The position numbers and the translations under genes are program-made. A stretch of 64,000 nucleotides of DNA from an uncultured Clostridia bacterium (GTDB lineage: Bacteria > Bacillota > Clostridia > TANB77 > CAG-508), in NCBI GenBank assembly GCA_949746675.1, contig CATKDT010000043.1:24820-88819 (forward strand). The letters are read 5' to 3'. The number at the start of each line of letters is the position of its first letter. The stretch's first letter is position 1. The notes below the pieces were generated by a model. That model ran no database searches. It saw nothing but the letters and a program-made list of their open reading frames with translations, and was not told the DNA's origin. Positions 15,464-54,700 of the stretch are shown here, piece by piece.

Positions 15464-18400
15464 ATGTCAAGAATATTAAACATAAAGGAAAATGTACTTA
15501 ATAAAAATGAATTAAAAGAATATTTGGCAAAACTTGCGTCAGACAATGTAATAACAAGTTCACCAGAAAAAAACACATATCCAATTCCAAGGTTAAAAGA
15601 AAACTGTGAGTATATATCATTAGTATATACTTTATTAAACAAGCACATAAAAATAGGAATACGAATACACTCAGCAGGAGAATGGATATTAGATAACTAT
15701 TATATAATTGAAAGAGCATATAAGATAATATCAAAGAATCTAACATTAAATAAATACATGAAGCTTCCAGGACTACGAAATGAAGGATTTGCAAGAATAT
15801 ACATGTTAGCAAATGAAATAATATCAAATACAGACGGAAAGATAAATCAAGAAGACTTAATAGAGTATTTAGAAAGTTACCAAACACAAAAAGAACTAGA
15901 AATGGAAGAAATATATAATATAGGAATATTTTTACAAATATGTATAATTGAAAAAGTTAGACGTATAAGTGAAAAAGTCTTTATATCACAGATGCAAAAA
16001 TATAAAGTAGATAATATAGTAGAAAGACTAATAGAAAATAAGCCAAGTAAGGAAATAAAATTAAAAGTAGAAGGCACATATCCATTTATTGAATATATGT
16101 CATACAAGTTAAAAAAGTATGGAAAAATATCAATTCCATACTTACAAATATTTGAAGAGCAAGTAAGAAAAATGGGACTAAGCGTGACTGATGCAATAAA
16201 CAGAGAACATTTTGATATAGCAGTAAAAAATCTATCAATAAAAAATAGTATAACAAGCTTAAAAATAATAGAAAGAATGGATGTAACAACAATATTCAAT
16301 AAGATAAATGTAGTAGAAGGAATACTTAATCAAGACCCATTGAATATCTACGAAGAGATGGATCATACAACAAAAGACTACTACAGACAAAAAATACTAG
16401 AACTATCTAAAAAAACTAAAGTATCAGAAATATTTATAGCAGAACAAGTATTAAAGCTTGCTCAAAATTCAACAAAAAACGATAAAATAGATGATTTGAA
16501 TGAAGAAACATCATATAACACCAAAGAAGAAATATTATCTCAAAATAACGAAAATAAAAACATATTAAGACAAAAAAAATCTCATGTAGGATATTACTTA
16601 ATAGATGAAGGAATAAATGAATTACTAACAATATTAGAACGAAAGAAAGTAAGGATAAAAACAGAAAAAGAAAGATCAAAAATATATATTGGGGCAATAT
16701 ACATGGCAACTATATTAATAACACTATTTTTATCATTAAAAATGGGTTATCTTGCATTACTATTATTCATACCAATACAAAATTTTGTAACACAAATAAG
16801 TCAATATATATTAAACAAAAAAGTACAATCAAAATTAATTCCAAAAATGGAAATACATGAAATACCAGAAGAATGTGCAACAATGTGTATAATACCAAGT
16901 GTTTTAAAGGACAAAGAAGACATCAAAGAAATAATAAACAAAATGGAAGTATACTATTTAGCAAACAAATCAAAAAACTTATATTTTACATTATTAGGTG
17001 ATTGTACAAGCGAAATGCAAGAAGTAACAAAAAACGACAAGGACATAGAAATAGAAGGAAAAAAGCAAGTAAAAAGACTAAACGAGAAATATGGAGAAAT
17101 CTTCTTTTTTGCATATAGAAAGAGACAATGGTGTAATACAGAAAGATGCTATATGGGCTGGGAGCGTAAGAGAGGAATGATTTCTCAATTCAATGAATTT
17201 TTAAAAATAGGAAAGTCAGAATTTAAAGTAAATACTTGTAAAAAGAATTTAAAGATTAAATATATAATCACAATAGACGAAGATACTAATTTAATACTAA
17301 ATTCAGTATTTAAATTAGTTGGGGCAATGGAACATATATTAAATAAACCAGAAGTCGACAAAATAAAAAATATAGTTACAAAAGGATATGGAATTATATC
17401 ACCTAGAATAGGATTAGATATAAACAGTGGAAGACAAACTACATTTACAAGATTATTTGCTGGAAATGGAGGAATAGATTTATATACAAATTCTATATCA
17501 GATGTATATCAGGATAATTTTAATGAGGGAATCTTTACGGGGAAAGGGATTTATAACTTAGACGTTTTTTACAAGATATTAAAAGATGAGATTCCAGAAA
17601 ATACAGTTTTAAGTCATGACTTAATTGAAGGAAGCTATTTAAAATGTGGACTAGCGACTGATATTACATTAATAGATAATTTCCCATCAAACTATATATC
17701 ATATAAAAAAAGAAAAGACAGATGGATACGAGGAGATACCCAAATATTAAAATGGATCAAATCAGAATTAAATGACTTATCAAAATATAAAATATTAGAC
17801 AATATATCAAGAAATTTAAATGAAGCATTTATATTTTTAACACTACTAATTGCAATATTAACTCAAAAGAACATAATAAACATAATAATTCCAATAATTT
17901 TACTTGCAGTTCCAATGATACTAAGATTATTTGACAACTTTGTACATCAAAGATGTGGAACACTAAAACACAAATTATTTGTATCAAATTTTTCAAAATG
18001 GAATCATTCAATATATAAGTTCTTAGTAGATTTTATAACATTGCCAGATATAGCATTTTTAGAATTAAGTGCAACATCAAAAGCATTATATAGAATGCAC
18101 ATATCACACAGTTTTTTATTAGAATGGACAACTGCGAGCTCAGCAGAAAATAATACAAATAATGACATAATTAGTTATATAAAATCAATGCAAATGCAGA
18201 TTATAATATCAATAATATTACTATTAAGTATATTTTTAAATATAATAAAAAATTTCAATATAAGTAATTTAATAGCAGCAATCTTTACGATAAGCTGGAC
18301 TTTAGCATTTTATCTAATGTACAATTTAGGAAAAACTAAGAAGACAAAAATAAACTTGGAACAAAACGAAAAAGAATACTTAACAAAAATAGCAAAGAAA

Positions 18401-28025: not shown

Positions 28026-28601
28026 ATGAATATGGAAATAGAAGAACTAAAAGAAGAATTAAAAAAATACATCACCAATGAAAAGAGATATTTACACTCA
28101 TTAGGAACCATGAAAATGTGCAAAATACTTGCAAAGAAATACAATGTAGATATAGAAAAAGCAGAAAAAGTAGGACTAGTGCATGACATTGCAAAAGAAA
28201 TAATAGACGAAGAAGCTATTAAATATGTTAAAGAAAACAATATAGAAATAACTGAGGTAGAAAAATATAATACAAAACTTTTACATGGTAAGATAGGCGC
28301 AGATTTATGTAGAAAGATATATAATTTTGACGAAGACATGTGTAGTGCAATAAAATGGCATACAACAGGAAGAGCAAATATGAGTATATTAGAAAAAATA
28401 GTATTTTGTGCAGACAAAATTGAAGAGAATAGAAAATATGACAATGTAGAATATTACAGAAACCTTGTATTGAAAGACATTGACCAAGCAGTGTTAGAAA
28501 TAATTGACTATACAATAAAATCCAATATAGAAAAAGGAAAATTATTACTAGAAAAAAGTATAGAAACTCGCAATTACATATTGATAAATCAAAAAAAATA
28601 A
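28026..28601 (+). CDS. yqeK: HD-domain bis(5'-nucleosyl)-tetraphosphatase, YqeK family
   Basis: 191 aa with RYLHSLGT, VHDIAKE, HGKIGA, WHTTG and ADKIE. Confidence 0.75.
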   Translation: MNMEIEELKEELKKYITNEKRYLHSLGTMKMCKILAKKYNVDIEKAEKVGLVHDIAKEIIDEEAIKYVKENNIEITEVEKYNTKLLHGKIGADLCRKIYNFDEDMCSAIKWHTTGRANMSILEKIVFCADKIEENRKYDNVEYYRNLVLKDIDQAVLEIIDYTIKSNIEKGKLLLEKSIETRNYILINQKK

Positions 28602-28634
28602 TATATAATGTATCCAATATGGAGGGCGAGACAG

Positions 28635-29525
28635 ATGGTTTTTAAAGATTACTATAAAATACTAGGACTAGAAACAAACAAAGTTACAACAGATGAAATA
28701 AAAAATGCCTACCGAGAGAAGGCAAAAAAGTACCATCCAGATAAAAATGCAGGAAACGCCGAAATAGAGGAGATATTTAAAGACATAAACGAAGCATATA
28801 AAATATTATCAAATTCGAAATCAAAAAGGAAATATGATTACACCTGGAATAGATATGTTGGAAGGAAAACACAAAATACGACACAGAAACAAAAAAAGAC
28901 ATTAAAAGAGATAATAATTGAAATGCTATTTGGTGAAATTGGAAAGAAAAAAGTTCAAAAAACTGAAACACCAAAATATGGAGAAGACATAACTACAGCA
29001 GTAGATGTAAGTATAGAGCAAGCATTCTTTGGATCTAACAAAAAACTTAAATTCAGAACAATTCAAGGAAAAGAAACTACATTTAATTTTAAAGTGCCTG
29101 CAGGAGTTAGAAATCATGACAAAATAAGAATTCCAGGACAAGGACAACAAGGAAAAAATGGAGGAAAAAATGGTGATTTAGTAATAAGTATAAACATTAA
29201 AGATACTAATAATCTTAAGCTTATAGGCTCAGATTTATTTATGGAATTACCAATAAAAGTATGGGAAGCAGCTTTAGGAACCACTAAGAAAATAGCAATA
29301 TTAAAAGAGGAAATACAAATTATAATTCCTAAATGTACAAGCAGCGGAGACAAATTAACAATAAAGGGAAAAGGTTATAGCAACGGAAAAGGAGAAAGAG
29401 GAAATTTAAACATAATAACAAAAATAGTTCTATCTAAGGAAGAACTGGAAAAAGAAGTCAAAATATTTGAAATGCTAAAAAAAGCAGAAGATCAAACCAA
29501 AATTCTAAATAGCAAAATTAAATAA
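28635..29525 (+). CDS. J-domain co-chaperone, CbpA-like (no zinc-finger region)
   Basis: DYYKILGL...YHPDKN J domain plus a DnaJ C-terminal beta-sandwich region (GDLVISINI, KLTIKGKGY). The ATG at 28635 follows GGAGGG; the track ORF opens at 28608. Confidence 0.8.
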   Translation: MVFKDYYKILGLETNKVTTDEIKNAYREKAKKYHPDKNAGNAEIEEIFKDINEAYKILSNSKSKRKYDYTWNRYVGRKTQNTTQKQKKTLKEIIIEMLFGEIGKKKVQKTETPKYGEDITTAVDVSIEQAFFGSNKKLKFRTIQGKETTFNFKVPAGVRNHDKIRIPGQGQQGKNGGKNGDLVISINIKDTNNLKLIGSDLFMELPIKVWEAALGTTKKIAILKEEIQIIIPKCTSSGDKLTIKGKGYSNGKGERGNLNIITKIVLSKEELEKEVKIFEMLKKAEDQTKILNSKIK

Positions 29526-29568
29526 TACTTATTATTGTAATAAATATAAAATAAAATATAATATAAAG

Positions 29569-29597
29569 TTGACATATTTACATAATTATAGTATAAT
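29569..29597 (+). promoter_or_regulatory. Perfect-consensus sigma-A promoter ahead of the unknown/T4CP module
   Basis: TTGACA (29569-29574), 17-nt spacer, TATAAT (29592-29597). Confidence 0.65.
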
Positions 29598-29628
29598 AAA
29601 AAGAGCAGTCAGCTAATGAAAGAGGTGT

Positions 29629-30156
29629 ATGATGGCTAAGGGATTTAATGGAAAATATTTCAGTATAACAGATCCAAAAGACGTAAGCACTGTAATTTAC
29701 AGAATTAATAAAACAGCGAAAGAATACCTAAATGAATATCCAAAATATACATTAGAAAGATTAGTATCATCAGAAGAATTAAATGGCAATGCAAAGAAAA
29801 AAACTTTTTTTATTGACTATCCAGAGCCAGAAGGAGAAGATTTAGTAATACTGTCTTTTGGCGAGAATAAAGTAATAGTTAATATGGGAAAATTAAAAAA
29901 TGACAAGATTAGGATATCAAGACTACCTATTCCTGTGCAATTTGACACGCTTTATTTAGAAACTGCTACAGAATACAAAAATTTTAAATATACACCAAAT
30001 TTAAAAAGACCAATAACAATAATTGACCCTGAAACAACTGAGGAAATAAAACCAATGTTGTACATAGACCAAACAACAAATGAAGTAAAAGGAAAATGCA
30101 AACTAAAACCATATAAATCATATTTTGCATTTGAGATAAGAGATAAAAACGTTTAG
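29629..30156 (+). CDS. Hypothetical cytoplasmic protein (175 aa)
   Basis: ORF preceded by SD AGAGGTG, with purine-rich coding bias and no motif I recognise. Confidence 0.6.
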   Translation: MMAKGFNGKYFSITDPKDVSTVIYRINKTAKEYLNEYPKYTLERLVSSEELNGNAKKKTFFIDYPEPEGEDLVILSFGENKVIVNMGKLKNDKIRISRLPIPVQFDTLYLETATEYKNFKYTPNLKRPITIIDPETTEEIKPMLYIDQTTNEVKGKCKLKPYKSYFAFEIRDKNV

Positions 30157-30175
30157 TAGCAAGGAGGATTTGTGA

Positions 30176-30502
30176 ATGGGTAATTTAGATAACGAAAATA
30201 CAACATTTGAAGCTCATTTAATGTCACTTAGATTTAAAGACAAAGACAAATCATATGATAAAAATAGCCAAGGTTTGCAAGTAATTCAACCAGGGAAAAT
30301 TGAAGAAACAAATGGTAATGGACCTGTTCAACCAAATTTACAAACAGAAATTAGTGTATTTACAGCTGATGAAAATATGGACATACCAATGCTTTCAGAA
30401 GAGCAAGTAAATACAATGAGAGAAAACAGATCAAAATACAGAGCAAGAGTACATTATAAAGGAAGAGCACAAAGGACATTAGACGAAAATGATGATAGAT
30501 AA
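30176..30502 (+). CDS. Hypothetical protein (108 aa)
   Basis: ORF preceded by SD AAGGAGG, 19 nt after the previous stop. The C-terminus is basic (RENRSKYRARVHYKGRAQR). No motif recognised. Confidence 0.6.
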   Translation: MGNLDNENTTFEAHLMSLRFKDKDKSYDKNSQGLQVIQPGKIEETNGNGPVQPNLQTEISVFTADENMDIPMLSEEQVNTMRENRSKYRARVHYKGRAQRTLDENDDR

Positions 30503-30558
30503 CCAATTGTAATTTATTATAATTGGTTTGTTCTATCTATAAATGAAAAAGTATAAAG

Positions 30559-30584
30559 AATAATATATTTTTAAATATATTATT
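30559..30584. promoter_or_regulatory. 12-bp-arm A/T palindrome upstream of the T4CP gene
   Basis: AATAATATATTT (30559-30570), TT, AAATATATTATT (30573-30584). It is A/T-only, so the significance is uncertain. Confidence 0.25.
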
Positions 30585-30674
30585 ACTTTACGAACAAAAA
30601 TAGTGAAACAAATGATAAGGAAAGACGATTTCAATGTAAGGACTAATTATTCCTTAGAAAGAAGTGAGGCAAAG

Positions 30675-32876
30675 ATGATAACTTGGATTAAGAAAAATAT
30701 AAAAACACTAATTGTAGGAGTTGTAATATGGATACTAGGTATGCTATTTTTAGTAGCACCTCTAGCAGTATCTATTAGTGAAAGTACTACAAATAGTGTT
30801 TTTAATATTCAAACATTTTTAGGACAATTACCAAAAAACGTAACAAGTTTCTCATCAATAACAAAAACATTTAACAATGAAACAATTGGCATATTTGGAA
30901 AATGCACATTAGGTTATACTATTATAATAGCAATAGCTGTAGGAATTGGACTATATAAAGCACGTAGTAAAAGTGAATATGATAAAATAGAACATGGATC
31001 AAGTGATTGGTCACAAGGTGGAGAACAGTATAGGGTTTTAAGTAAAAATCAGGGATTAATACTTGCTGAAAATAATTACTTACCACTAAACAAAATAGGA
31101 AATGTAAACGTACTTATTGTCGGTGGATCTGGATCTGGTAAATCATCATCATATTCAATGCCAAATGCATATCAATGCTTAGGATCATATATATTTACAG
31201 ACCCAAAAGGAGAAATATATGATTCAACAGCTGGTTATTTGAAATCTAAGGGATATGAAATAAAAATATTAAACTTAGTAAATCCAACATGTAGTGACAG
31301 TTATAATCCAATCCAACATATCCAATCAGAAATAGATGTAGATATTATAGCAAATACAATTATTAAAGGACAAAAAACAGAAGCAACAAAATCATCAGAC
31401 CCATATTGGGACAACATGTCAGAATTATTATTAAAGGCATTAATATATTATTTATTAGCAAAAAGACCACCAGAAGAACAGAATTTAGCAAGTTGTGCAG
31501 AACTGGTAAGAGCGGCAAGCAAAAATGGAGACAGCAATCTATTATCAAACTTAATGAGTGAACTACCATATGATCACCCAGCAAGAATGAACTATAAATC
31601 AGTTGAACTAGCATCAGAAAAAACATATGGAACAATTTTAAGTTCACTTCAATCATCATTAGGAAAATTTGACTCAAAAGAAATAGCAGATGTTACATCA
31701 ACAAACACAATAGACTTTGACGATATAGCAAAAAAGAAAACAGCTTTATATGTTGTATCCTCAGACACACATGCAGCATATGACTTCTTATTAACAATAT
31801 TTTTCTCACAAATGATACAACAATTATATGACTTTGCAGACAGAAATGGTGGAAAGCTACCAGTGCCAGCATTCTTTATACTAGATGAGTTTGCCAATAT
31901 AGGTCAGGTACCAGACTTTGACAAGAAAATATCAACAAGTAGAAGTAGAGGAATATCATTTAGTGTAATATTACAAAATTTAGATCAATTAAAAGCAATA
32001 TATGATAAATCATATGAAACAATTATAGGAAACTGTGATACACACGTATTTTTAGGAAGTAACTCATATGAAACAGTAGAATACTTTTCAAAAGAATTAG
32101 GTGAAAAAACAATATCACATAATAGTAAAACCATGAATAGAAACAATGACTCAGTACGTACAGGGTATAGTGAATCAGATCAAATAATGGCAAGAGCACT
32201 TATGACACCAGATGAACTAAGAAGAATGGATAATAACGAATGTATTATATTTGAAAAAGGATTAAAGCCAATAAAAGCAAAGAAATTTTGGTATTACAAA
32301 AAGCCTAATATAGTTAGAGATTTTAATAATAATAGACTAAACCACAATGACTATAAAGTAGCAGATAGAGGAGAATGGAGAAAATTCAATCCAGCAAATC
32401 CATATACTGAAAAATCAGAGGATAACAAAGAATTAGAAATAGGAGCACTTGACAACTTATTTAGCGAAATTGAAACACCTACAAATAAACAAGGTGATAC
32501 TATAAATGAAATTAAATCTCAAGATGCTTCTACAATATCAAACACAAGTATAACTAAATCAAATTCTACAATGCAAATAAATGGAATAAATAATAACAAT
32601 AGTGATATAGCAAATACTATTAAACCAAGTGCAGAACCAATAATCAAGCAGGCACAGCAATCATCAGTAAACATTAATAATACAACACAAGAACAAATAG
32701 AAAATGTTGGAGCAATACCAAAAGAAACACCAACTAATACTGAACAATCTATAGTGCAATCACAAAATCAATTTAATAATTTAAAATCAGTAGACCAAAC
32801 TAACGAAGAAGAAGTAGATATACAAAAAGAATTAGAAGCAAAATTTGATGAGTTATTTGGAAACTTAAATGATTAA
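30675..32876 (+). CDS. VirD4/TraG-type type IV secretion coupling protein-like ATPase (orphan)
   Basis: Two N-terminal TM helices, Walker A VLIVGGSGSGKSSS, TDPKGE, Walker B FFILDEFANIG, then SRGISFSVILQNLDQL. A long N/Q/S/T-rich acidic C-terminal tail follows. The ATG at 30675 follows GTGAGG; the track ORF opens at GTG 30603. Confidence 0.85.
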   Translation: MITWIKKNIKTLIVGVVIWILGMLFLVAPLAVSISESTTNSVFNIQTFLGQLPKNVTSFSSITKTFNNETIGIFGKCTLGYTIIIAIAVGIGLYKARSKSEYDKIEHGSSDWSQGGEQYRVLSKNQGLILAENNYLPLNKIGNVNVLIVGGSGSGKSSSYSMPNAYQCLGSYIFTDPKGEIYDSTAGYLKSKGYEIKILNLVNPTCSDSYNPIQHIQSEIDVDIIANTIIKGQKTEATKSSDPYWDNMSELLLKALIYYLLAKRPPEEQNLASCAELVRAASKNGDSNLLSNLMSELPYDHPARMNYKSVELASEKTYGTILSSLQSSLGKFDSKEIADVTSTNTIDFDDIAKKKTALYVVSSDTHAAYDFLLTIFFSQMIQQLYDFADRNGGKLPVPAFFILDEFANIGQVPDFDKKISTSRSRGISFSVILQNLDQLKAIYDKSYETIIGNCDTHVFLGSNSYETVEYFSKELGEKTISHNSKTMNRNNDSVRTGYSESDQIMARALMTPDELRRMDNNECIIFEKGLKPIKAKKFWYYKKPNIVRDFNNNRLNHNDYKVADRGEWRKFNPANPYTEKSEDNKELEIGALDNLFSEIETPTNKQGDTINEIKSQDASTISNTSITKSNSTMQINGINNNNSDIANTIKPSAEPIIKQAQQSSVNINNTTQEQIENVGAIPKETPTNTEQSIVQSQNQFNNLKSVDQTNEEEVDIQKELEAKFDELFGNLND

Positions 32877-32886
32877 AAATAAAAAT

Positions 32887-32928
32887 AAACCAAATTATAA
32901 AATAAAAATATATTTGGCTTATTTTTTT
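32887..32928 (+). terminator. Probable Rho-independent terminator
   Basis: CCAAAT pairs with ATTTGG (imperfectly extended), followed by TTATTTTTTT. Confidence 0.4.
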
Positions 32929-32974
32929 AAAATAATATTATTAAAAATTTAATTAAAATAAGGAGAAAATATAA

Positions 32975-34006
32975 ATGAAATTTGTGCATATAGCAGATGT
33001 TCATTTTGATATACCATTTAGAACACTTGCTGAGAGAGCTAATTTAGGACAGAAAAGGAGAATGGAACAAAGAGAAGCATTTAAAAAAGTAATAGACTTT
33101 ATAAAAGATGAAAAAGTAGATTATTTATTTATTAGTGGAGATCTTTATGAAGAAGAAAATATAAGAAAAACAACAATAGATTATATTAATAATTTATTTA
33201 AAGAAATAAAAAATACAAAAATATTTATAGCACCAGGAAACCATGATCCATATTTAAAAAACTCATATTATTCAATATATAATTGGTCAGAAAATGTAAA
33301 GATATTTACAAACAAGGTTGAAGTAATAAAATATGAAGATATAGATATATATGGATATGGATTTAATGATTTTGAAATGAGTGAAAACCAATTAGAAAAT
33401 ATAAAAGTAGAAAATATTGAAAAAATGAATATACTAATAACCCATGGAGATCTATATACAGAATCTAGATATAATAAAATGGATAAAAATAAATTAAAAA
33501 AATTTAATTATACTGCAATAGGGCATATACATAAAAGAGATGAATATTATCCAGGTTCATTAATAGCATTAGGATTTGATGAACCAGGTGAACATGGATT
33601 TTATTTTGGAGAAACAATAAAATTAAATGGAAAAGAATTTTTAAATAAAAAATTTATAAAAATAGATGAAAAACAATTTATAAAAGAAGAAATAAATATA
33701 ACAAATATTTCATCACAAGAAGAATTAATAGAAAAATTAAATTTAATAGAAACAAAAAATAATTATTATGAAATTTATTTAACAGGAACACGAAATTTTC
33801 AAACCAATATTAATATGAAATTAATCCAAACTAATATTATAAAAATAAAAGACAAAACAAATTACAAAAATTCAATAATAGAAAATGACAAAACATTGTC
33901 AGGGATTTTCCTTAAAAAACTAAATTTAAAACTTCAAAATGGAGAAATAGATGATGAAACATATCAGAAGGTATTAGAATTAGAAAATCGAATAATGGAA
34001 AGCTAA
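32975..34006 (+). CDS. Metallophosphoesterase DNA-repair exonuclease, SbcD-like (YhaO/SbcF type)
   Basis: MKFVHIADVHFD, SGDLYE, APGNHD, ITHGD and GHIH calcineurin-like phosphoesterase motifs. Confidence 0.8.
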   Translation: MKFVHIADVHFDIPFRTLAERANLGQKRRMEQREAFKKVIDFIKDEKVDYLFISGDLYEEENIRKTTIDYINNLFKEIKNTKIFIAPGNHDPYLKNSYYSIYNWSENVKIFTNKVEVIKYEDIDIYGYGFNDFEMSENQLENIKVENIEKMNILITHGDLYTESRYNKMDKNKLKKFNYTAIGHIHKRDEYYPGSLIALGFDEPGEHGFYFGETIKLNGKEFLNKKFIKIDEKQFIKEEINITNISSQEELIEKLNLIETKNNYYEIYLTGTRNFQTNINMKLIQTNIIKIKDKTNYKNSIIENDKTLSGIFLKKLNLKLQNGEIDDETYQKVLELENRIMES

Positions 34007-34303
34007 AAAAAGCATAATTGTTAATTTGACAACATGAAAACAAATGGAGCATAAAAACTACTAGACAGCGTAAAGCGCTGGGAAATAGGGATTACACAAA
34101 AATGAAAAAGTAAAAAAACTCAATTAATAAGTAAGAGAAAAATATATTCAAAAGAAAAATAAAAACAAACAAAAGAGCGCAAAAATAACAATAAAATGCA
34201 AAAATTGTCTCAAAAACAAAAAAGAGAATAAAAACTAGTAAAATTTAAATCTAAAAAATGGAAATAAAAATATAAAACTTATACTAAAAATGAAAGGTAT
34301 AAA

Positions 34304-36097
34304 ATGGAAATAGAAAAAATAAAGATAAATCAATATGGAAAATTAGATAATAAAGAAATTAATTTCAAAAAAATAAATTTAATATATGGAAAAAACGAAA
34401 CTGGAAAATCTACATTATTAAATTTTATAACAAGTATGTTTTATGGAATATCAAAAAATAAAAATGGAAAAAAATATTCAGACTATGATAAATATTATCC
34501 ATGGAATAAAAATGAGTTTTCAGGAATAATAAATTATAAATTAGATAATCAAAAAAAATATTATGTATATAGAAACTTTGAAAAAAAGAATCCAAAAATA
34601 TATGATGAAAATAATAATGATATAACAGAAAAATATAATATTGATAAAAAAATAGGAAATCAATTTTTTATAGAGCAAACAGGTATAGAAAAAGAAATAT
34701 TAGAATCTACTGTAATAACAAATCAAAAAGAAATTGAAATAAATTCTAATACACAAAATAATTTATTACAGAAAATTGCAAACTTAGCTGAAAGTGGTAG
34801 CGAAGAAACATCATATAAAACAGTAATAACTAAATTGGATAAACTATTATTAAATGAAGTGGGTACAGAACGCAGTCAAGAAAAACCAATAAATATAGTA
34901 AAAGAAAATATAAACGATTATGAAGAAAGAATAAATGAAATAAAAAAATATAAAGATTATAAATATGAATGTGAAAGTAAGAGTAATGAAATAAAAGAAC
35001 AATTAGAAGAAGAAAAAAGCAACAAAATAATTTATGACAAAATAAAAATATTAATCAATAATGATAAAAAAGAACAAGAAAAAATAAATATAAAAAAAGA
35101 TATAATAGAAGAAAATAATAAAAAAATAGAGAAAAATAATAAAGAAAAAATACAAAAAGATAAAAATAAAAAGAAAAAAATTATAATTTTTATTTTAATG
35201 TTTTTAATTTTAATGAACATAATTAATTTTATTTTACTGAAAAACAAAATACTAAATTATATTTTATTTTCATTAATTTTAATTTTTTTAATTTATATAA
35301 TAATAAAATATAAATTAAATAACTCAAAATTATTAGAAAAAGACACAAAATTAATAGAAGAAAACAATTTGAAATTAAAAAAAGAAACAGAAAAACTACA
35401 AGAACAATTATTAAAAAATAATAAAATAGAAAAAGAAAAATTAATAAAAGAATATGGCAATAATATAAATGATTTATTTAATTCTGGAATAGAAGAAATA
35501 GCAGAACAAAATAAAGAAGAAATAAATAAATTAGAATTAGAACTTCATAAAACAGAATTAGACAGAGAAAATATTGAACCAAAATTAGATGAATTAATAG
35601 AATATGAAGAACTACTATCAGTAGAACGAGAAAAATTAGAAGAACTAAATGAACAAACTAAGGTGTTTAAAATAACAAAAGAACTAATGCAAGAATCATA
35701 TCAAGAAATGAAAAAAAATGTTATGCCAAAGTTTAGTGAAACATTATCTAAAAATATAGAAAAAATATCTGATAAAAGTTACAATAAAATAATCATTGGA
35801 GATGAAATAAATGTTGAACTTGAAAACGGAGATTACTTACCAATAGAAAAGTTAAGTATAGGAACAATAGAACAAATATACTTATCATTGAGGCTATCAG
35901 TAATAAAAGAACTATCAAAAGAAACAATACCAATAATACTTGATGAAGCATTTGCTTATTTTGATGACGATAGATTAAAAGAAACATTACAATATTTAAA
36001 TAAAACAGAGAATCAAGTTATAATATTAACATGTACAAATAGAGAAAAAGACTTATTAGAAAAAATGAAAATGGAATTTAATTATGTGGAGCTTTAG
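34304..36097 (+). CDS. SMC/SbcC-like ATPase (YhaN/SbcE type) with two central hydrophobic helices
   Basis: N-terminal Walker A GKNETGKST, a K/E/N-rich coiled coil, signature-like LSIGTIEQIYLSLRL and Walker B PIILDEAFAYFD. The central segments IIIFILMFLILMNIINFILL and YILFSLILIFLIYIII fall at about nt 35170-35310. Confidence 0.75.
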   Translation: MEIEKIKINQYGKLDNKEINFKKINLIYGKNETGKSTLLNFITSMFYGISKNKNGKKYSDYDKYYPWNKNEFSGIINYKLDNQKKYYVYRNFEKKNPKIYDENNNDITEKYNIDKKIGNQFFIEQTGIEKEILESTVITNQKEIEINSNTQNNLLQKIANLAESGSEETSYKTVITKLDKLLLNEVGTERSQEKPINIVKENINDYEERINEIKKYKDYKYECESKSNEIKEQLEEEKSNKIIYDKIKILINNDKKEQEKINIKKDIIEENNKKIEKNNKEKIQKDKNKKKKIIIFILMFLILMNIINFILLKNKILNYILFSLILIFLIYIIIKYKLNNSKLLEKDTKLIEENNLKLKKETEKLQEQLLKNNKIEKEKLIKEYGNNINDLFNSGIEEIAEQNKEEINKLELELHKTELDRENIEPKLDELIEYEELLSVEREKLEELNEQTKVFKITKELMQESYQEMKKNVMPKFSETLSKNIEKISDKSYNKIIIGDEINVELENGDYLPIEKLSIGTIEQIYLSLRLSVIKELSKETIPIILDEAFAYFDDDRLKETLQYLNKTENQVIILTCTNREKDLLEKMKMEFNYVEL

Positions 36098-36184
36098 AAA
36101 AACATTAAAAAAAATAAGATAGACATATTAAGTTAATAGAAAAATTAAATAAAAAACAATTTTAAAATAAAACAATAGTAAAAA

Positions 36185-36214
36185 TTGACTTTTACCCATA
36201 AATGAGTGTATAAT
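36185..36214 (+). promoter_or_regulatory. Sigma-A type promoter for the prfA leader
   Basis: TTGACT (36185-36190), 18-nt spacer, TATAAT (36209-36214). Confidence 0.5.
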
Positions 36215-36243
36215 AAAAAATATTATAAAAGAGAGGAGAAAAT

Positions 36244-36285
36244 ATGAATGTAAAACGTACATTCATACAAAATATTTATGTTTGA
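36244..36285 (+). CDS. 13-codon leader ORF ([13 protein letters not shown]) overlapping the prfA start
   Basis: Strong SD GAGAGGAG lies 6 nt upstream. Its TGA stop (36283-36285) overlaps prfA codons 2-3 (ATGTTTGA). Its ATG lies inside a 9-bp hairpin. Confidence 0.4.
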
Positions 36286-37333
36286 AAATTTAGAAGACAT
36301 TGAAAAGAAATATGAAGAACTAACAAAGATGATTAGTGATCCAGAAGTAATTGCAAACCAAGAAGAATGGCGAAAAATGATGAAAGAGCAAGCTAGCATT
36401 GAGCCAATAGTCGAAAAATATAGAGAATATAAAAAAGTAAAACAAGCCTATGAAGAATCAAAAGAATTATTAAAAGATCCAGAAATGAAAGAATTAGCAG
36501 AAGAGGAAATGTTAACATCAAAAGAAAAACTACCTATATTAGAAGACGAACTAAAAATATTATTAATTCCAAAAGATCCAGACGATGATAAAAACGTAAT
36601 ATGTGAAATAAGAGCAGGAGCTGGTGGAGATGAAGCAGCACTTTTTGCAGGAACACTATTTAGAATGTATTCAATGTACTGTGATAAAAAACACTGGAAA
36701 ATAGATATATTAAATGAAAATGCAACAGAACTAGGTGGATATAAAGAAATATCATTTATGATAAAAGGAGATGGAGCATATAGTAGACTAAAATTTGAAA
36801 GTGGAGTTCATAGAGTTCAAAGAGTACCAGAAACAGAAGCAAGTGGAAGAATACACACTTCGACAGCATCAGTATCAGTATTACCAGAAGTTGGAGATGT
36901 TGAGATAAATATAAATCCAGCAGATATAAAAATGGAGGTATTTAGAGCATCAGGAGCAGGAGGACAACATATAAATAAAACTTCATCTGCAGTTAGACTA
37001 ATACATGTACCAACAGGTATGGTAGTAGAATGCCAGACAGAAAGATCACAATTTCAAAATAGAGAATATGCTATGAAAATGTTACAATCACGTCTATATG
37101 AACAAGAGAAGAGAGAACGTGATAGTAAAATTGAAAGTGAAAGAAGAAGCCAAATAGGAAATGCGGAAAGAAGTGAAAAAATAAGAACATACAACTACCC
37201 ACAAGGAAGAATTACAGACCATAGAATTGGAATGAGTGTATATCAAATGGAAAACTTCTTAAATGGAGACATTGATACAATGATAGATAGCTTAATTGCT
37301 GCTGATACAGCAGAAAAATTAAAGGGAGAATAA
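36278..37333 (+). CDS. prfA: Peptide chain release factor 1
   Basis: 351 aa with [14 protein letters not shown] (the RF1 PxT region) and [16 protein letters not shown] (GGQ). The N-terminus aligns with typical RF1 starts. Confidence 0.9.
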
Positions 37334-37492
37334 AGATATCCACAAAAAGAAAACAAAAAGTGGATAAAGACACCAAAGAATATAAAAATTAAACAAATAA
37401 AATAAAAGAAACAAATAGTTTGAAAAAATTTTTTATTATAATTTGTATCATTGAACTTTAAAGGAAATAATAAAAGAAAGGAGATATATAAT

Positions 37493-38701
37493 ATGGAAAA
37501 TGTATTAGATATATTAGAAAATAGAGGATATGTTGAACAAGTAACTGATAAAGAAGAACTTAGAAAATTATTAAACAACAAAGGAGTTCCATTTTATATA
37601 GGAATAGACCCAACAGCAGACAGCTTACATGTAGGTCATTTTGTATCACTAATGGTAGCCTCATATATGCAAAAAGAAGGACATAAGCCAATACTATTAA
37701 TGGGTGGAGGAACTGCTACAATAGGAGACCCATCAGGAAAAACAGACATGAGAAAAATGCTAACAAGAGAAGAATTAGATCACAATGTAGAATGTATAAA
37801 AAAACAAGTAAGCAAATTTTTAAGCTTTGAAGGTGAAAATTCAGCAATAATAGTAAACAATGCAGATTGGTTATTAGACTTAAATTACATAAACTTTATG
37901 AAAGAAATAGGAACACAATTCACAGTAACAAGAATGTTATCAGCAGAATGCTACAAAAATAGACTAAATTCTGGATTAACATTTTTCGAAATGGGATACA
38001 TGTTAATGCAATCATATGACTTTTGGTTTTTATATAACAAATATGGATGCAAACTTCAAATGGGTGGGAATGACCAATGGTCTAATATAATAGGAGGAGT
38101 AGACTTAATTAGAAAATTCAACAAAAACGACTCATTTGGATTAACATTTAGACTTCTTACAACAAAAGAAGGAAAGAAAATGGGAAAAACAGAAAAAGGA
38201 GCACTATGGCTTGACGAGACAAAGACATCACCATATGAATTCTATCAATACTGGAGAAATATAGCAGATGCAGATGTAAAAACAGTAATGAGTATGTTGA
38301 CATTCCTAACAATGGAAGAAATAGAAAAATTGGCAGACGTTGAGGGAGAAGAAATTAACAAAGCAAAGAAAAGAGCAGCATTTGAAATAACAAAATTAGT
38401 ACATGGAGAAAAAGCAGCAAAAGAAGCAGAGGAAGCAGCAGAAAACTTATTTTCAGGAAAAGGCAATGCAGAAAATATGCCTACAGCAAAGATAGAGCCA
38501 AATGCAACGATATTAGACGCAATAATTGCAGCAGGATTTGCACAATCAAAAGGACAAGCAAAAACACTAATAGCACAAGGCGGAATAACACTAAACGATG
38601 AAAAAATAACAGACATAACATATACAATAAAAGAAGAAGAATTAAATCAAAATCCAATATTAAAAAAAGGAAAAAAGGGATTTTGTAAATTAATAAAATA
38701 G
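37493..38701 (+). CDS. tyrS: Tyrosine--tRNA ligase
   Basis: DPTADSLHVGH (HIGH), KMGKT (KMSKS) and a C-terminal S4-like domain. The ATG at 37493 follows AAGGAGA; the track ORF opens at 37451. Confidence 0.9.
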   Translation: MENVLDILENRGYVEQVTDKEELRKLLNNKGVPFYIGIDPTADSLHVGHFVSLMVASYMQKEGHKPILLMGGGTATIGDPSGKTDMRKMLTREELDHNVECIKKQVSKFLSFEGENSAIIVNNADWLLDLNYINFMKEIGTQFTVTRMLSAECYKNRLNSGLTFFEMGYMLMQSYDFWFLYNKYGCKLQMGGNDQWSNIIGGVDLIRKFNKNDSFGLTFRLLTTKEGKKMGKTEKGALWLDETKTSPYEFYQYWRNIADADVKTVMSMLTFLTMEEIEKLADVEGEEINKAKKRAAFEITKLVHGEKAAKEAEEAAENLFSGKGNAENMPTAKIEPNATILDAIIAAGFAQSKGQAKTLIAQGGITLNDEKITDITYTIKEEELNQNPILKKGKKGFCKLIK

Positions 38702-39914: not shown

Positions 39915-40668
39915 ATGTTACAAACATCATTATTAGGACTATTCTTTGGAACCGTAGGCACAACAATAGGAGGACTTATAGGAATAATATCAAAAAGAAA
40001 CTCAAACAAATTTATAAGTTTTATATTATCATTTGCATCAGGACTAATGTTATCAATAGTATGTTTCAACCTAATTCCAGAAGCAATGGAAACATCAAAC
40101 ATATACACAACAATACTAGGAATATCACTAGGAGTAGTAATTATGATACTATGCGACATAGTAGTAAAAAATATATTTAATCAAAAGACGAATGAATTAC
40201 AGCAAAATACAGTTCAACAAAAAAACAATAATAGTCTATTAAAAACAGGAATAATAATAACACTAGGAATAGCATTACACAATATACCAGAAGGTTTAGC
40301 AATAGGATCAGGCTTCGAAACATCTGCAAAACTAGGACTATCACTTGCAATAGCAATATGCATGCATGATGTTCCAGAACGGAATAGCAATGGCAATACC
40401 ACTAAAAAATGGAGGAATGAATAAAATAAAGATAATAATATACATAATATTATCAGGAATAGCAACAGGAATAGGAGCAACTATAGGAGCATTAATAGGA
40501 GAAATATCAACACAAATAATAGCAATTTCGTTAGCATTTGCAGGAGGAGCAATGCTATATGTAGTATCAGGAGAACTAATTCCAGAATACAACAAACTAT
40601 ATAGTGGAAGAACAAGTTCATTAGGAATAATATTAGGATTTTTATTAGGAATATTATTTAGAAGCTAA
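39915..40668 (+). pseudogene. zupT: ZIP family (ZupT-like) metal transporter interrupted by a 1-nt frameshift
   Basis: The first ORF ends ...AIAICMHDVPERNSNGN*. The second frame continues GIAMAIPLKNGG.... Deleting C40380 restores the conserved HDVPEGIAMA motif, which parallels the upstream HNIPEGLAIG. Confidence 0.75.
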
Positions 40669-51793: not shown

Positions 51794-54700
51794 ATGCAAA
51801 AATACACACTAAAAATCGTGGCAATATTAACCACACTATTACTAGTTGGAACAATGTTCATTCCAACACTTGTATACGCCAGTGAGGAAATACAAGACCA
51901 AAAAACAAGTCAAGAAAACGTATTATTTAATGCTACTGTACAAAACAAATATGAGGCAAAACTAAATTTATTGGCAGAATCAACACTTGAACTAAATTTA
52001 TCAGTAAAAAACACAGGATATCTAAAAGACATAAACGTAACACTAGAAGGAAATAACTATGACCTAGTAACAACAAAGGAACCAGAACAAAGTTTAGATA
52101 TACTAACAGTTGATGAGCAAACAACATTAGAACAACAAATATCAAGTCAAATGCCAACAGGAGCATTAGACACAATACAAGGAAATACGAATAACGTAAA
52201 TGAGGATGCATTAAAAAATGCAACTATGGGTGGAAGTATTATAAATCAAACAGAAAATAAGCAACCAGTAGAAGGAAATACACTAACAGAAGAAATAAAA
52301 AACAATATTACAGAAACAAATGACAATCAAAACAAAATAAAAGCAATAAAAGAAAATGTAATAGAACTAAACGAAATAAAATTTGGTGAAACAGCAAACA
52401 TAAAACTTCCAATAAAATTTAAAGAAAATGATAAAATATCTGTAGACGAATATAACAAAGAATCTACAGTAACTTTGAGTGCAATTTACGTAAATGAAAA
52501 AGGAAAAGAAAAGAAAGTAACAAAAACAATAACACACAAAATAGAATGGACACTTGACGTAACAGAAAAAATTGAACAAAAACTAACAAGATACTTAAAA
52601 TACAATAACAACACGATGATAGGTGTAGAAATTAATGATGAGATAGAACCCAATAACTTACCTATAACAAAAAAAGAAATAAGCATAATCACTCCAAAAG
52701 TAAATAATATAAATCCAGAAAAAATAATAGCACTAACAGAAAATGCAGAATACAAATATGAAAATGGAATAGTAACAATAATACAAGAAAGCAAACCTGA
52801 CAATGAGGGCAAAATTTCTATAAACTCTAAGGGAACATACAGACTAATATATATATATAATACACAAGTAGAAGAAATAAAAACTATTGAAACATCAGCA
52901 ACAGCTCAAATAACAACAATAAAAGAAGACACTGTTACAGGAACAACAACACAAAACACATTTGATGTAACAGAACAAATAGGAAGCTTAGTAGACTTAG
53001 AAACAATAAAACCAGAAAGCATAAGTAAAGGGTATATGTATACAAATTTAAATAAAAGCGAAAACAAACTAACAACAAGCTATGAAGAAAAATACAATGT
53101 AAATATTGGACTAGCAGAACTAGTAGACAGAATAACAATAGAACAAAAAACAAACTCATTTACAACAGAACAAGGATATTATGATATAACAGACAAAATA
53201 ACAACAAAGAAAATAAAAGTAGAAAACCTTGAAAAAATACTTGGAGTTGATGGAAAAATAACAATAAAAAATCAAGCAGGAGAAGAAATAGCAGCACTAA
53301 GTAAAGAAAAGCAAGAAGCAGAAATCACAGAATCAATATTAACAATTGAAACAACAAAACCAATAGCAGAAGGAAATCTACAATTTACACTATTAAAAGA
53401 AATATCAGGAGATGTAGGCTTAAATATAGAAGAATTAAAAACAATAAACAAATTAACAACACAAATAAATGTAAAAGGCTACAAAGGTGAAATAGAAATA
53501 TCAAATCAAGAAAAAACAGACGAGATAGCACTAGAAAGTCCAAAATCAACAGCAACACTAGAAGTAAGTCAAAGCACACTATCAACAGTAACAGAAAACA
53601 AAGACATAATATTCAATGTAGTACTTAACAAAAGTAGCATTGAAAACGCACTATACAAAAATCCATCAATAAAAATAACACTACCAGACCAAGTAAAAGA
53701 AATAAAAGTAAAAGACGCACGTGTTTTATATGAAAACGAAATATCAGCAGGCTCAATAAATACTGACAACAACACAATACAAGTAAACTTACAGGGAACA
53801 CAAACAGAATACTCAAGTTCAGCAACAGAAAAAGGATCATTAGTAAGAATAGTAGCAGACATAAAACTTGACAACTTAGCAACATCTGATAATGGAAATA
53901 TAAAATTAAACTATGCAAACGAAGCAACAGGAGAAAATAATACAATAGAAGGAACAATGAAGGTAGAAGCACCAACAGGATTTGTAACAACAAACACAAT
54001 AAAAATAGATGATAAAGAAGCAACAGCAGTAGAAAGCAACAATGATGATATAGAAATAGCAAGAACAGCAGAAGAAAGAAAAATGCAAATAAAAGGTGTA
54101 ATAATAAACAATCTAGGAAATAATGCAGAAGGACTAACAATAATAGGAAGAATACCATTCCAAGGAAACAAAACATTAGAAGGAAAAGACTTAGGAACAA
54201 CAGTTGATACAACACTAAGCACAGCAATAGCAGTAACAGGACTAGAAAACGCATTAGTATATTACAGTGATGACAAAGAAGCAGGAATAACTACACAAAA
54301 CTGGAGTACAGAACCAACTACAAGCTCAAAAACATACAAAATAGTAGCAAATACACCATTAAACGACAAAACAAAAGCAGAATTTAACTATGAAGTAACA
54401 GTTCCAGCAAATTTACCAGCTTCAAGTGCAATAAAAGAAAACTATGGAGTATATTACAACAACAACTCAGTAGATGGAATAAAAACAAACCTAGTAGAAG
54501 CAAAAACAGTAGGAGCATCAACATCTGGAATAGCAGATATTGAAACAGGACTAGAAATATTTGACACAAACACTGGAGTACAAATTCAAAATGAGGGACA
54601 AGTAACAGAAGGAGAATACATCACATACAGAATACGTATACGTAATAAAGGAAGCAAAAATGCTGAAAATGTAAAAGTAAAAGCAACATTAGCAAATGGG

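Follow-up and report, generated by a model that had tools for sequence, protein, structure and literature searches.

We analyzed a 64,000-nucleotide (nt) stretch of DNA from an uncultured Clostridia bacterium (NCBI GenBank assembly GCA_949746675.1, contig CATKDT010000043.1, positions 24,820 to 88,819 of the forward strand), hereafter called the window, and focused on a locus of three genes that encode two small proteins, ORF175 and ORF108, and an ATPase of the type IV coupling protein (T4CP) class. In our reading, to which we assign a probability of roughly 55%, this locus would be a coupling-protein module that has been domesticated and is inherited vertically in a large clade of uncultured gut Clostridia of low GC content, and it would not belong to a conjugative element. 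An earlier sequence-only reading of the same DNA had offered two explanations, a decayed remnant of a mobile element or a domesticated translocase working with the two small partners and possibly with the adjacent nuclease/SMC pair. The comparisons reported here lead us to reject the former and favor the latter, in that the trio was never separated and the pair recurs in most of the loci in which it was counted. The main features of the locus are as follows.

29569–29597, plus strand: TTGACA-17-TATAAT promoter, a perfect sigma-70/sigma-A consensus
29632–30156, plus strand: ORF175, 174 amino acids (aa) from the second ATG; predicted soluble all-beta protein with no family in the libraries searched
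30176–30502, plus strand: ORF108, 108 aa; acidic N-terminal part, basic C-terminal helix; fast-evolving
30675–32876, plus strand: VirD4/TraG-type coupling protein (T4CP), 733 aa; two transmembrane (TM) helices, HGS-x-W motif, Walker A and B motifs, all-alpha domain and a low-complexity linker of ~170 aa
32817–32861, plus strand: invariant C-terminal peptide DIQKELEAKFDELFG at the end of the T4CP, tethered by the variable linker; putative docking site for ORF175

By every sequence criterion the T4CP belongs to a known family, and what sets it apart is its context, as it lacks the linkage to a relaxase and a type IV secretion system (T4SS). The two TM segments lie at aa 7–38 and 70–96, the HGS-x-W motif at 30987–31013, the Walker A motif GGSGSGKS at 31122–31145 (aa 150–157) and the Walker B motif FILDEFANIG at 31875–31904 (aa 401–410). 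The two helices, both Walker motifs and a tail ending in an acidic helix had already been described in the sequence-only reading and were all recovered here, with the 733-aa start being favored. The ATG at 30675 is the most likely start because this codon and its ribosome-binding site are kept in a sister species (locus L008) and the alternative GTG at 30603 is not. Relatives align from residue 1–5 of the 733-aa form, and an exact look-up of the 757-aa form returned no match, the start codon having probably been called otherwise in that collection. Three Pfam models were matched above their cut-offs: T4SS-DNA_transf (2.2e-81, 274 bits against a cut-off of 20), TraG-D_C (3.5e-38, 130.8 bits) and TrwB_AAD_bind (1.2e-26, 94 bits). 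The nearest solved structure by sequence is Helicobacter pylori Cag5 (8dol). The protein also passes the NCBIfam equivalog model NF045973, 'VirD4-like conjugal transfer protein, CD1115 family', with 446.7 bits against a cut-off of 250. Thus, it resembles the Firmicute conjugative T4CPs of this family in its two-helix anchor, HGS-x-W motif, Walker A/B domain, all-alpha domain and above-cut-off scores. Unlike them, it occupies a core locus, has no relaxase, VirB4/VirB6, integrase or att repeats found nearby, and carries a unique tail peptide and unique partners. Given this context, and with the nearest plasmid T4CPs only ~35% identical to the window protein, the 'conjugal transfer' function implied by NF045973 is doubtful for the window T4CP.

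The window proteins were then mapped onto 79 related species loci (numbered with the prefix L), in which a neighboring J-domain protein (J-protein) was counted in 76, the T4CP in 75 and the nuclease/SMC pair in 50. The flanks of L008–L087 were compared only with the window's own genes, and Pfam calls cover L001–L007, L088, L090 and L096–L099. The chromosomal position of the module, between housekeeping flanks, is the same in all related species loci, with unbroken synteny. The sequence-only reading had suggested surveying whether the arrangement is conserved or confined to variable islands, and had named a trio conserved nowhere else as an outcome that would count against it. The survey found the three-gene arrangement in all related loci, in a fixed context. 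The T4CP follows downstream in 74 of 75 loci by tblastn, and the exception (L023) shows an intact P-loop open reading frame (ORF) in a separate search. Between ORF175 and the T4CP, a small ORF of 74–137 aa is present in nearly all of the 76 related loci checked. A scan with one genome per species detected relatives of ORF175 in at least 562 species genomes. The listed carriers are all metagenome-assembled genomes of uncultured gut Clostridia, and they come from many independent studies (mouse, human, rabbit, sheep and chicken).

The module also extends to distant lineages. In L088, L090, L096 and L099, ORF175 is only 26–43% identical to the window protein, yet the module is retained, with a small ORF of 50–83 aa in the same slot. 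The gene orders in these four loci are:

L088: J-protein, ORF175, 58-aa ORF, T4CP
L090: divergent J-protein, ORF175, 83-aa ORF, T4CP
L096: rpmB, ORF175, 82-aa ORF, T4CP, SbcD-like, SMC-like
L099: ORF175, 50-aa ORF, T4CP

Among the related loci, the median identity to the window protein is 78% for PrfA, 72% for ORF175, 65% for the T4CP, 61% for Ddl, 53% for MurF and 48.5% for the J-protein, so that ORF175 is conserved at about the level of a translation factor (release factor 1). All parts of the module are under purifying selection. Their composition is native, with a GC content of 28–31% in the trio against a window average of 28.8%.

The promoter noted in the sequence-only reading is indeed present, with TTGACA at 29569–29574, a 17-nt spacer and TATAAT at 29592–29597. 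A promoter scan of 28000–37500 found no other site with all 12 hexamer positions matched, and the total number of promoter-like sites in this region was not above that of shuffled sequences. Across the 79 related species loci, the score is 12/12 in 71 and 11/12 in the other eight, and the hexamers are constant while the spacer and flanks vary freely. The perfect promoter is therefore best regarded as a selected feature and not a product of chance, because it recurs in 71 of 79 loci despite variable spacers and flanks. As shown by this sequence evidence, the site can be taken as a strong constitutive promoter that drives ORF175 and the small ORF, both of which have good ribosome-binding sites. 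In a second subclade (for example L005, L032, L040, L057, L061, L082, L087, L044, L058 and L075), the 5' untranslated region of ORF175 holds a conserved inverted repeat, CTATGA(A)...TTCATAG, located just 5' of the ribosome-binding site and 60–90 nt 3' of the perfect promoter. This repeat, which may form an mRNA-stabilizing or regulatory stem-loop, is not found in the window's own 35-nt leader.

Two further elements separate the small genes from the T4CP gene, both as the sequence-only reading had described them.

30501–30528, plus strand: A/T-rich hairpin with 13-nt arms (92% complementary), placed right behind the ORF108 stop and followed by TTTGTTC
30559–30584, strand not assigned: perfect A/T palindrome between the hairpin and the T4CP start; 12-nt arms, 100% complementary

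The hairpin has a minimum free energy of -13.7 kcal/mol (z = -4.3), better than 200 of 200 shuffles. It was not called by the terminator scan, which misses it because its stem is A/T-rich. Its stem is kept in L008 with a different loop; the hairpin is missing from most other relatives, in which the intergenic gap measures 30–60 nt. We regard it as a candidate attenuator or terminator placed after the small genes and ahead of the T4CP gene. The palindrome likewise keeps its arms in L008 (8930–8960) with a different center, and possibly represents an operator for separate control of the T4CP. No Rfam match was obtained within 28000–37500.

We then examined the locus for traces of a mobile element. 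Pfam scans of the trio, its neighbors and ten other window ORFs (including the largest unassigned ones; the remaining window ORFs were not scanned) detected no relaxase, VirB4, VirB6 or integrase domain. Domains of a T4SS, relaxase or integrase are likewise missing from the genes called in the Pfam-annotated related loci. There are no meaningful direct repeats flanking the trio, and no tRNA gene lies next to the module, the only one in the window being at 817–909. This agrees with the sequence-only reading, which had reported the absence of these conjugation genes and repeats from the window. In short, the integrase, att repeats, adjacent tRNA, foreign composition and patchy distribution that characterize integrative and conjugative elements (ICEs) were not found among the ORFs scanned and the related loci. 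Relatives of ORF175 were found neither on 72,556 plasmids or 50,697 phages by tblastn nor in a scan of IMG/VR viral contigs. A decayed mobile-element remnant was consequently rejected on the grounds of fixed synteny, purifying selection, native GC content, the absence of ORF175 from plasmids, phages and viral contigs, and the low identity of plasmid T4CPs.

A chromosomally fixed T4CP could also serve a T4SS and relaxase encoded elsewhere, such as in resident ICEs or mobilizable elements, with ORF175 acting as a relaxosome-type adaptor. The match to the CD1115-family model and a domain set typical of conjugative T4CPs would fit such conjugation in trans. Nevertheless, we consider it rather improbable: no plasmid T4CP is closer than ~35% identity, neither the tail peptide nor ORF175 occurs on plasmids, and, being fixed at a single core locus behind an invariant promoter in hundreds of species, the gene does not resemble an accessory conjugation gene. 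Moreover, the Pfam-annotated related loci hold no conjugation gene, and housekeeping synteny is unbroken in the others.

In about 30 species, the T4CP gene was found to be broken into two ORFs, one (~160 aa) encoding the TM part and the other (~500 aa) the ATPase part. The break always consists of one extra C inside Walker A, GG[AT]-C-GG[TA], as in ...GTA GGA C GGT TCA GGT TCT GGT AAA..., while the window's own T4CP gene is contiguous at the equivalent site (31110–31145). Examples of frame-break sites are:

L005, 11260–11330
L029, 9340–9400
L053, 9330–9390

In the split genes, the 0 frame reads G-R-F-R-F-W-stop (G-R-x-x-x-W-stop) and ends five codons on. GSGSGKS is encoded in the +1 frame, which has stop codons immediately before this stretch and, in the majority of loci, lacks a start codon there. 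After the break, the ATPase frame stays open for 430–540 codons in DNA of 28% GC and is 59–81% identical to the window protein (mostly 67–73% over residues 151 to ~600). The P-loop codons vary only at positions that are synonymous in the +1 frame. The 0-frame codon at the break, CGG, is the rarest Arg (and sense) codon, accounting for ~0.02% of codons outside the site. Two independent trees both show split genes intermingled with contiguous ones among close relatives. As a separate observation, whole T4CP genes mostly have GTC, an otherwise rare Val codon, immediately ahead of the P-loop.

This pattern would fit programmed +1 frameshifting that is conserved and takes place at a slowly decoded codon, and it does not fit pseudogenization. 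Recoding is favored over decay because the site is conserved, the ATPase frame is open and conserved, and codon variation is synonymous in the +1 frame. Programmed +1 frameshifting at a slowly decoded codon is known from prfB and from yeast Ty3, which is of the 'hungry codon' type. The related loci share with such genes a conserved site, a rare A-site codon (CGG), an early end of the 0 frame and a downstream frame without a start. They differ from prfB in that the site lies inside the T4CP Walker A motif, no Shine-Dalgarno-like stimulator was seen at a prfB-like spacing, and the case is known here from sequence alone. Expression of the split genes as two separate polypeptides was considered and rejected, because the P-loop itself is interrupted and, in most loci, the ATPase frame has stops and no start directly upstream.

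The same break bears on the idea of a decayed integrated conjugative element whose ATPase has been inactivated in relatives. The sequence-only reading had counted inactivating changes in relatives among the outcomes that would undermine a working translocase. A Walker A frame break was indeed found, and its pattern argues for recoding. The lack of T4SS genes nearby and the break itself could be taken as signs of decay; nevertheless, hundreds of species have conserved the position, the promoter and the sequences, the ATPase frame remains open and similar to the window protein past the break, and its codon variation is of the synonymous +1 type. Assembly chimeras are also unlikely, because the loci were obtained in many independent studies. 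Decay is therefore extremely improbable in our view.

Next, we considered the two small proteins. The longest frame of ORF175 spans 29629–30156 (175 aa), and the most likely start is at 29632 because relatives open with MA(E/K)GF. No match was found in Pfam, NCBIfam, PADLOC or PHROG. Database homologs number 3898, and the best 120 of them are all at least 71% identical. Residues F10, L44, F59, R126, D132, Y164 and E168 are invariant within the family. Structure prediction and profile searches had been proposed in the sequence-only reading for both small proteins. Profile searches were run with both, together with an AlphaFold2 (AF2) model and a Foldseek search for the longer one, and no known relative emerged for either. 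The AF2 model of ORF175, built on a 33-sequence alignment, is all-beta with two beta-sandwich-like halves (predicted local distance difference test score 79, predicted template modeling score 0.74). Foldseek comparison of this model with PDB and BFVD gave TM-scores of at most 0.36, representing only generic Ig-like noise, and a profile search of PDB sequences gave no relative.

A clue to the role of ORF175 came from the C-terminal end of the T4CP. The tail of the T4CP is hypervariable in length and composition across ~70 species loci, yet its end is always D[IV]QKELEAKFDELFG, identical or nearly so. The distant lineages L088, L090 and L096 retain the peptide, in the forms YDIQVELEKRFDELFG, FDIQKQLEEKFDELFG and FDIQKQLEAKFDELFG. 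It forms an amphipathic acidic helix, with a face of I, L, F, L and F, at the end of a long variable tether. Within 1.2 Mb of related loci it is confined to T4CP tails; it has no match on plasmids and is not found in plasmid T4CPs. A degenerate second copy, ELEIGALDNLFSE, was noticed in the middle of the linker (window 32445–32468), and the linkers of relatives hold other short conserved islands, such as EAPILPQ(E/D) ~25 residues before the terminal peptide. We also compared the peptide, on general knowledge, with the FtsZ C-terminal peptide, the SSB tail, sliding-clamp-binding motifs and membrane-targeting helices, and none of them fits the sequence.

An exhaustive representative search revealed that an ORF175-like domain (31–41% identity, E-values down to 1e-18) is embedded in large unrelated proteins. 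In these fusion proteins, Sel1 repeats follow directly after the ORF175-like domain, a TIR or Ser/Thr-kinase domain is located at one end, and a tail-type peptide lies 55–100 residues upstream of the ORF175-like domain (for example ELEAKFEELFG, ELESKFEELFG, ELDAKFEEIFG, ELVAKFEELFG and LLECFDELFG). With a hidden Markov model (HMM) built from T4CP tails only, 11 of the 28 fusion proteins exceeded the 99th percentile of 5600 shuffles, where ~0.3 would be expected by chance, and all 11 matches fall within the same 55–100 residues upstream of the domain. By eye, weaker variants of the peptide can be seen in ~11 more, giving a total of ~22 of 28. The co-occurrence of peptide and domain in cis in the fusions and in trans in the operon suggests, as fusion-type evidence, that ORF175 and the tail peptide interact. 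ORF175 is thus probably a receptor or adaptor for the T4CP tail peptide. As to the fusion proteins themselves, P0225 (L091:8001–10313), P0231, P0244, P0226, P0183, P0212 and ~20 others from unrelated contigs share the layout of a TIR, Ser/Thr-kinase or unclassified head, ELxAKF[DE]ELFG, an acidic linker, the ORF175-like domain and Sel1 repeats. The L091 gene lies within a cluster of TIR-TPR, kinase and TIR-LRR genes that looks like a signaling or immune-type island.

Known tail-adaptor pairs of T4CPs include the C-terminus of F-plasmid TraD with TraM, and the extension of Legionella DotL with DotM, DotN, IcmS-IcmW and LvgA. The arrangement proposed here is similar in that the end of a C-terminal T4CP extension would, as the fusions suggest, dock a partner encoded next to it, which would select or present the substrate. 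It differs from the TraM and Dot/Icm adaptors in that the partner is a predicted all-beta protein of ~174 aa with no detectable relation to them.

The second small protein, ORF108, shows a clear charge split, as the last 33 residues have an isoelectric point (pI) of 10 and the remainder a pI of 4.4. This is in line with the sequence-only reading, which had reported two linked small ORFs, of 175 and 108 aa, the second with a basic C-terminus. The family alignment has a mean column identity of 19%, with a common C-terminal motif N-R-x-x-R-x-T-x-x-A-[LI]. ORF108 had no match in Pfam or PADLOC and nothing meaningful against PDB sequences in a profile search, and its sole NCBIfam match was non-significant (E 0.016, 15 bits against a cut-off of 280). 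ORF108 does not seem to be part of the fused unit, because its HMM fails to match the TIR, kinase and Sel1 fusion proteins.

These properties raise the question of whether the module could be a minimal protein exporter, in which the T4CP, the ORF175 adaptor and the J-protein (acting via DnaK to keep substrates unfolded) export the small protein or others, with the basic tail as the signal. The small ORF always occupies the slot between the ORF175 and T4CP genes; its product evolves fast but keeps a basic C-terminal helix, and the J-protein is linked in all 76 loci in which it was counted. Substrates of the Agrobacterium and Bartonella VirB/D4 systems carry positively charged C-termini as signals recognized by the T4CP, and adaptors bound to the DotL tail of Legionella recruit effectors. 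Nonetheless, we know of no T4CP that translocates proteins alone, and of no channel component that would serve here. A role of the small protein as a regulator or as an accessory factor that binds DNA is just as conceivable, and export leaves the linkage to the SbcE/SbcF-like genes unexplained. On balance, export of this kind is the strongest of the competing readings but seems unlikely.

Further examination of the flanks allowed the neighboring genes to be assigned more precisely. On the 5' side, the window holds murF, ddl, a yqeK-like HD gene and the J-protein gene; on the 3' side, the SbcD-like nuclease gene, the SMC-like ATPase gene, prfA and tyrS. The immediate neighbors of the trio are:

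28608–29525, plus strand: basic (pI 9.7) J-domain protein of class B, CbpA-like; HPD motif of the J domain at aa 43, DnaJ_C region, zinc finger absent
32975–34006, plus strand: SbcD/Mre11-type metallophosphoesterase, SbcF/YhaO-like (Pfam Metallophos, 5.5e-17)
34304–36097, plus strand: SMC-like ATPase, SbcE/YhaN-like (Pfam AAA_27, 8.1e-12); hydrophobic segments at aa 289–339

The housekeeping context described in the sequence-only reading was confirmed, and two of its gene assignments were refined. The 'dnaJ-like' gene encodes a CbpA-like class B protein without a zinc finger, and the 'sbcC-like' gene is of the SbcE/YhaN type, with an AAA_27 domain and a hydrophobic center.

The J-protein has only two Pfam domains, DnaJ (9.8e-23) and DnaJ_C (4.6e-36). 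The NCBIfam curved-DNA-binding-protein model covers positions 1–295 of 306 with 170 bits, under the cut-off of 403; the protein is therefore described as CbpA-like and not as a confirmed equivalog. It resembles CbpA in its J domain with HPD, two C-terminal domains, lack of a zinc finger, basic character and full-length model alignment, and differs from it in this sub-cut-off score and in its linkage to ORF175 and the T4CP instead of cbpM. It lies directly upstream of ORF175 in 76 of 76 loci and also in the distant L088 and L090, the L090 copy being divergent. The upstream J-protein thus belongs to the module, a point that the sequence-only reading had missed.

The downstream pair has the architecture of SbcE/SbcF, with an AAA_27 head, a hydrophobic center and an adjoining SbcD-like phosphoesterase, and the family assignment is by architecture and not by direct orthology. 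The NCBIfam sbcd model matched the phosphoesterase with 47.9 bits, under its cut-off. Bacillus subtilis SbcE has a hydrophobic central domain, and SbcE and SbcF act in double-strand break repair and transformation (PMC2811018). The window pair and B. subtilis SbcE/SbcF (YhaN/YhaO) have in common an SMC-like ATPase with a hydrophobic center and an SbcD/Mre11-like phosphoesterase, the window SMC-like protein being shorter (597 aa). The B. subtilis genes presumably do not lie beside a T4CP gene. In 39 of 50 loci the pair comes next after the T4CP gene, giving the five-gene arrangement asked about in the earlier survey proposal, and it does so again in L096, where the neighbors are otherwise different. 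There is moderate evidence from this linkage that the SbcE/F-like pair is functionally connected with the T4CP. The SMC-like homolog of L096 also has a central hydrophobic stretch. We further noticed that the SMC-like product of the window contains two to three hydrophobic segments in the middle of its coiled coil, so that the 'hinge' would lie in the membrane, and that the GC content of its gene falls to 16–20%, compared with 28.8% for the window.

Taken together, a domesticated module would operate as follows. The membrane-anchored, hexamer-type VirD4-like ATPase, whose catalytic motifs are intact, would be the motor. ORF175 would dock on the tethered tail peptide, so that the T4CP ring is decorated with ORF175, and substrate handling or other accessory tasks would fall to the small basic-tailed protein and the CbpA-like J-protein; both of these steps are moderately supported. 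It might further be imagined that the machine acts at the membrane on DNA or nucleoprotein together with the SbcE/SbcF-like membrane nuclease, in DNA uptake, export or clearance, and that it works without a dedicated linked type IV secretion channel, although support for either step is weak. A DNA link is suggested by the T4CP family and its all-alpha domain, the adjacent SbcE/F-like pair and the CbpA-like J-protein. That the substrate is DNA or nucleoprotein, handled with the SbcE/F-like nuclease and the basic CbpA-like J-protein, can only be put forward tentatively. Equally speculative is the reading that joins all of these elements: a housekeeping, T4SS-independent motor with a beta-sandwich adaptor at the membrane across an order-level clade, whose peptide-domain pair finds a second use, as a latch or assembly module, in signaling or immune proteins with TIR or kinase heads, and whose amount is set in part of the clade by the Walker A +1 frameshift at a near-unassigned CGG codon.

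Several observations weigh against a domesticated module of this kind. The predicted fold of ORF175 gives no functional clue (Foldseek TM-scores ≤0.36), and no sequence feature of the module points to its cargo. The J-protein is not adjacent to the module in L096 and L099, and 11 of 50 loci have lost the SbcE/F linkage (fab genes or prfA come next instead), as have L088 and L090. In the fusion proteins, the peptide could bind the Sel1 repeats instead of the ORF175-like domain. Finally, the search for T4SS and relaxase genes covered the loci only and not whole genomes.

The fusion proteins also invite the view that the module is an anti-mobile-element or stress-sensing system, with the ORF175 domain as a sensor and the module detecting or excluding incoming DNA. 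ORF175-like domains with TIR or Ser/Thr-kinase heads inside TIR-TPR/TIR-LRR gene clusters would fit this view, as would the resemblance of the SMC-like and nuclease neighbors to several defense systems. In PADLOC, the T4CP gave only a weak match to mad8 (31 bits) and the SMC-like protein only weak, generic SMC-head matches; ORF175 and ORF108 gave none. The distribution of the module is fixed and syntenic and not patchy, and ORF175 is conserved at a housekeeping level. Pairs of the SbcE/F type serve generally in repair among Firmicutes (PMC2811018). We accordingly regard a defense or sensing role as quite improbable.

Coupling proteins are understood almost wholly as parts of conjugation and effector secretion. 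If the domesticated module is real, a core-genome T4CP with its own partners and no linked channel would mean that cells have recruited this motor family for a function of their own, in parallel to FtsK/SpoIIIE. The analysis makes testable the cargo of the motor, a new peptide-domain interaction shared with TIR and kinase proteins, and a candidate case of bacterial +1 recoding. The name 'conjugal transfer protein' given by the NCBIfam equivalog is probably wrong for thousands of database entries, and ICE-finding tools may count such T4CP genes as conjugation remnants. The searchable literature contained no description of the module and nothing relevant on the motif or on orphan or domesticated T4CPs. 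The T4CP family itself is known; ORF175, ORF108 and the tail peptide are new in the sense that they occur in no library searched.

Besides the module, several other genes of the window were noted. A ZIP-family metal transporter gene at 39915–40668 is seemingly broken into the overlapping ORFs 39915–40424 and 40366–40668. L005 has a single Zip gene of 247 aa in a comparable neighborhood, and the break in the window may reflect a frameshift, a pseudogene or a sequencing error. A 2718-aa GH94/glucoamylase-type protein encoded at 15464–23620 resembles cyclic beta-1,2-glucan synthase. Toward the end of the window, a 2163-aa protein with no Pfam match (56863–63354) is preceded by a 1660-aa surface protein with DUF11 and SdrD_B domains (51794–56776).

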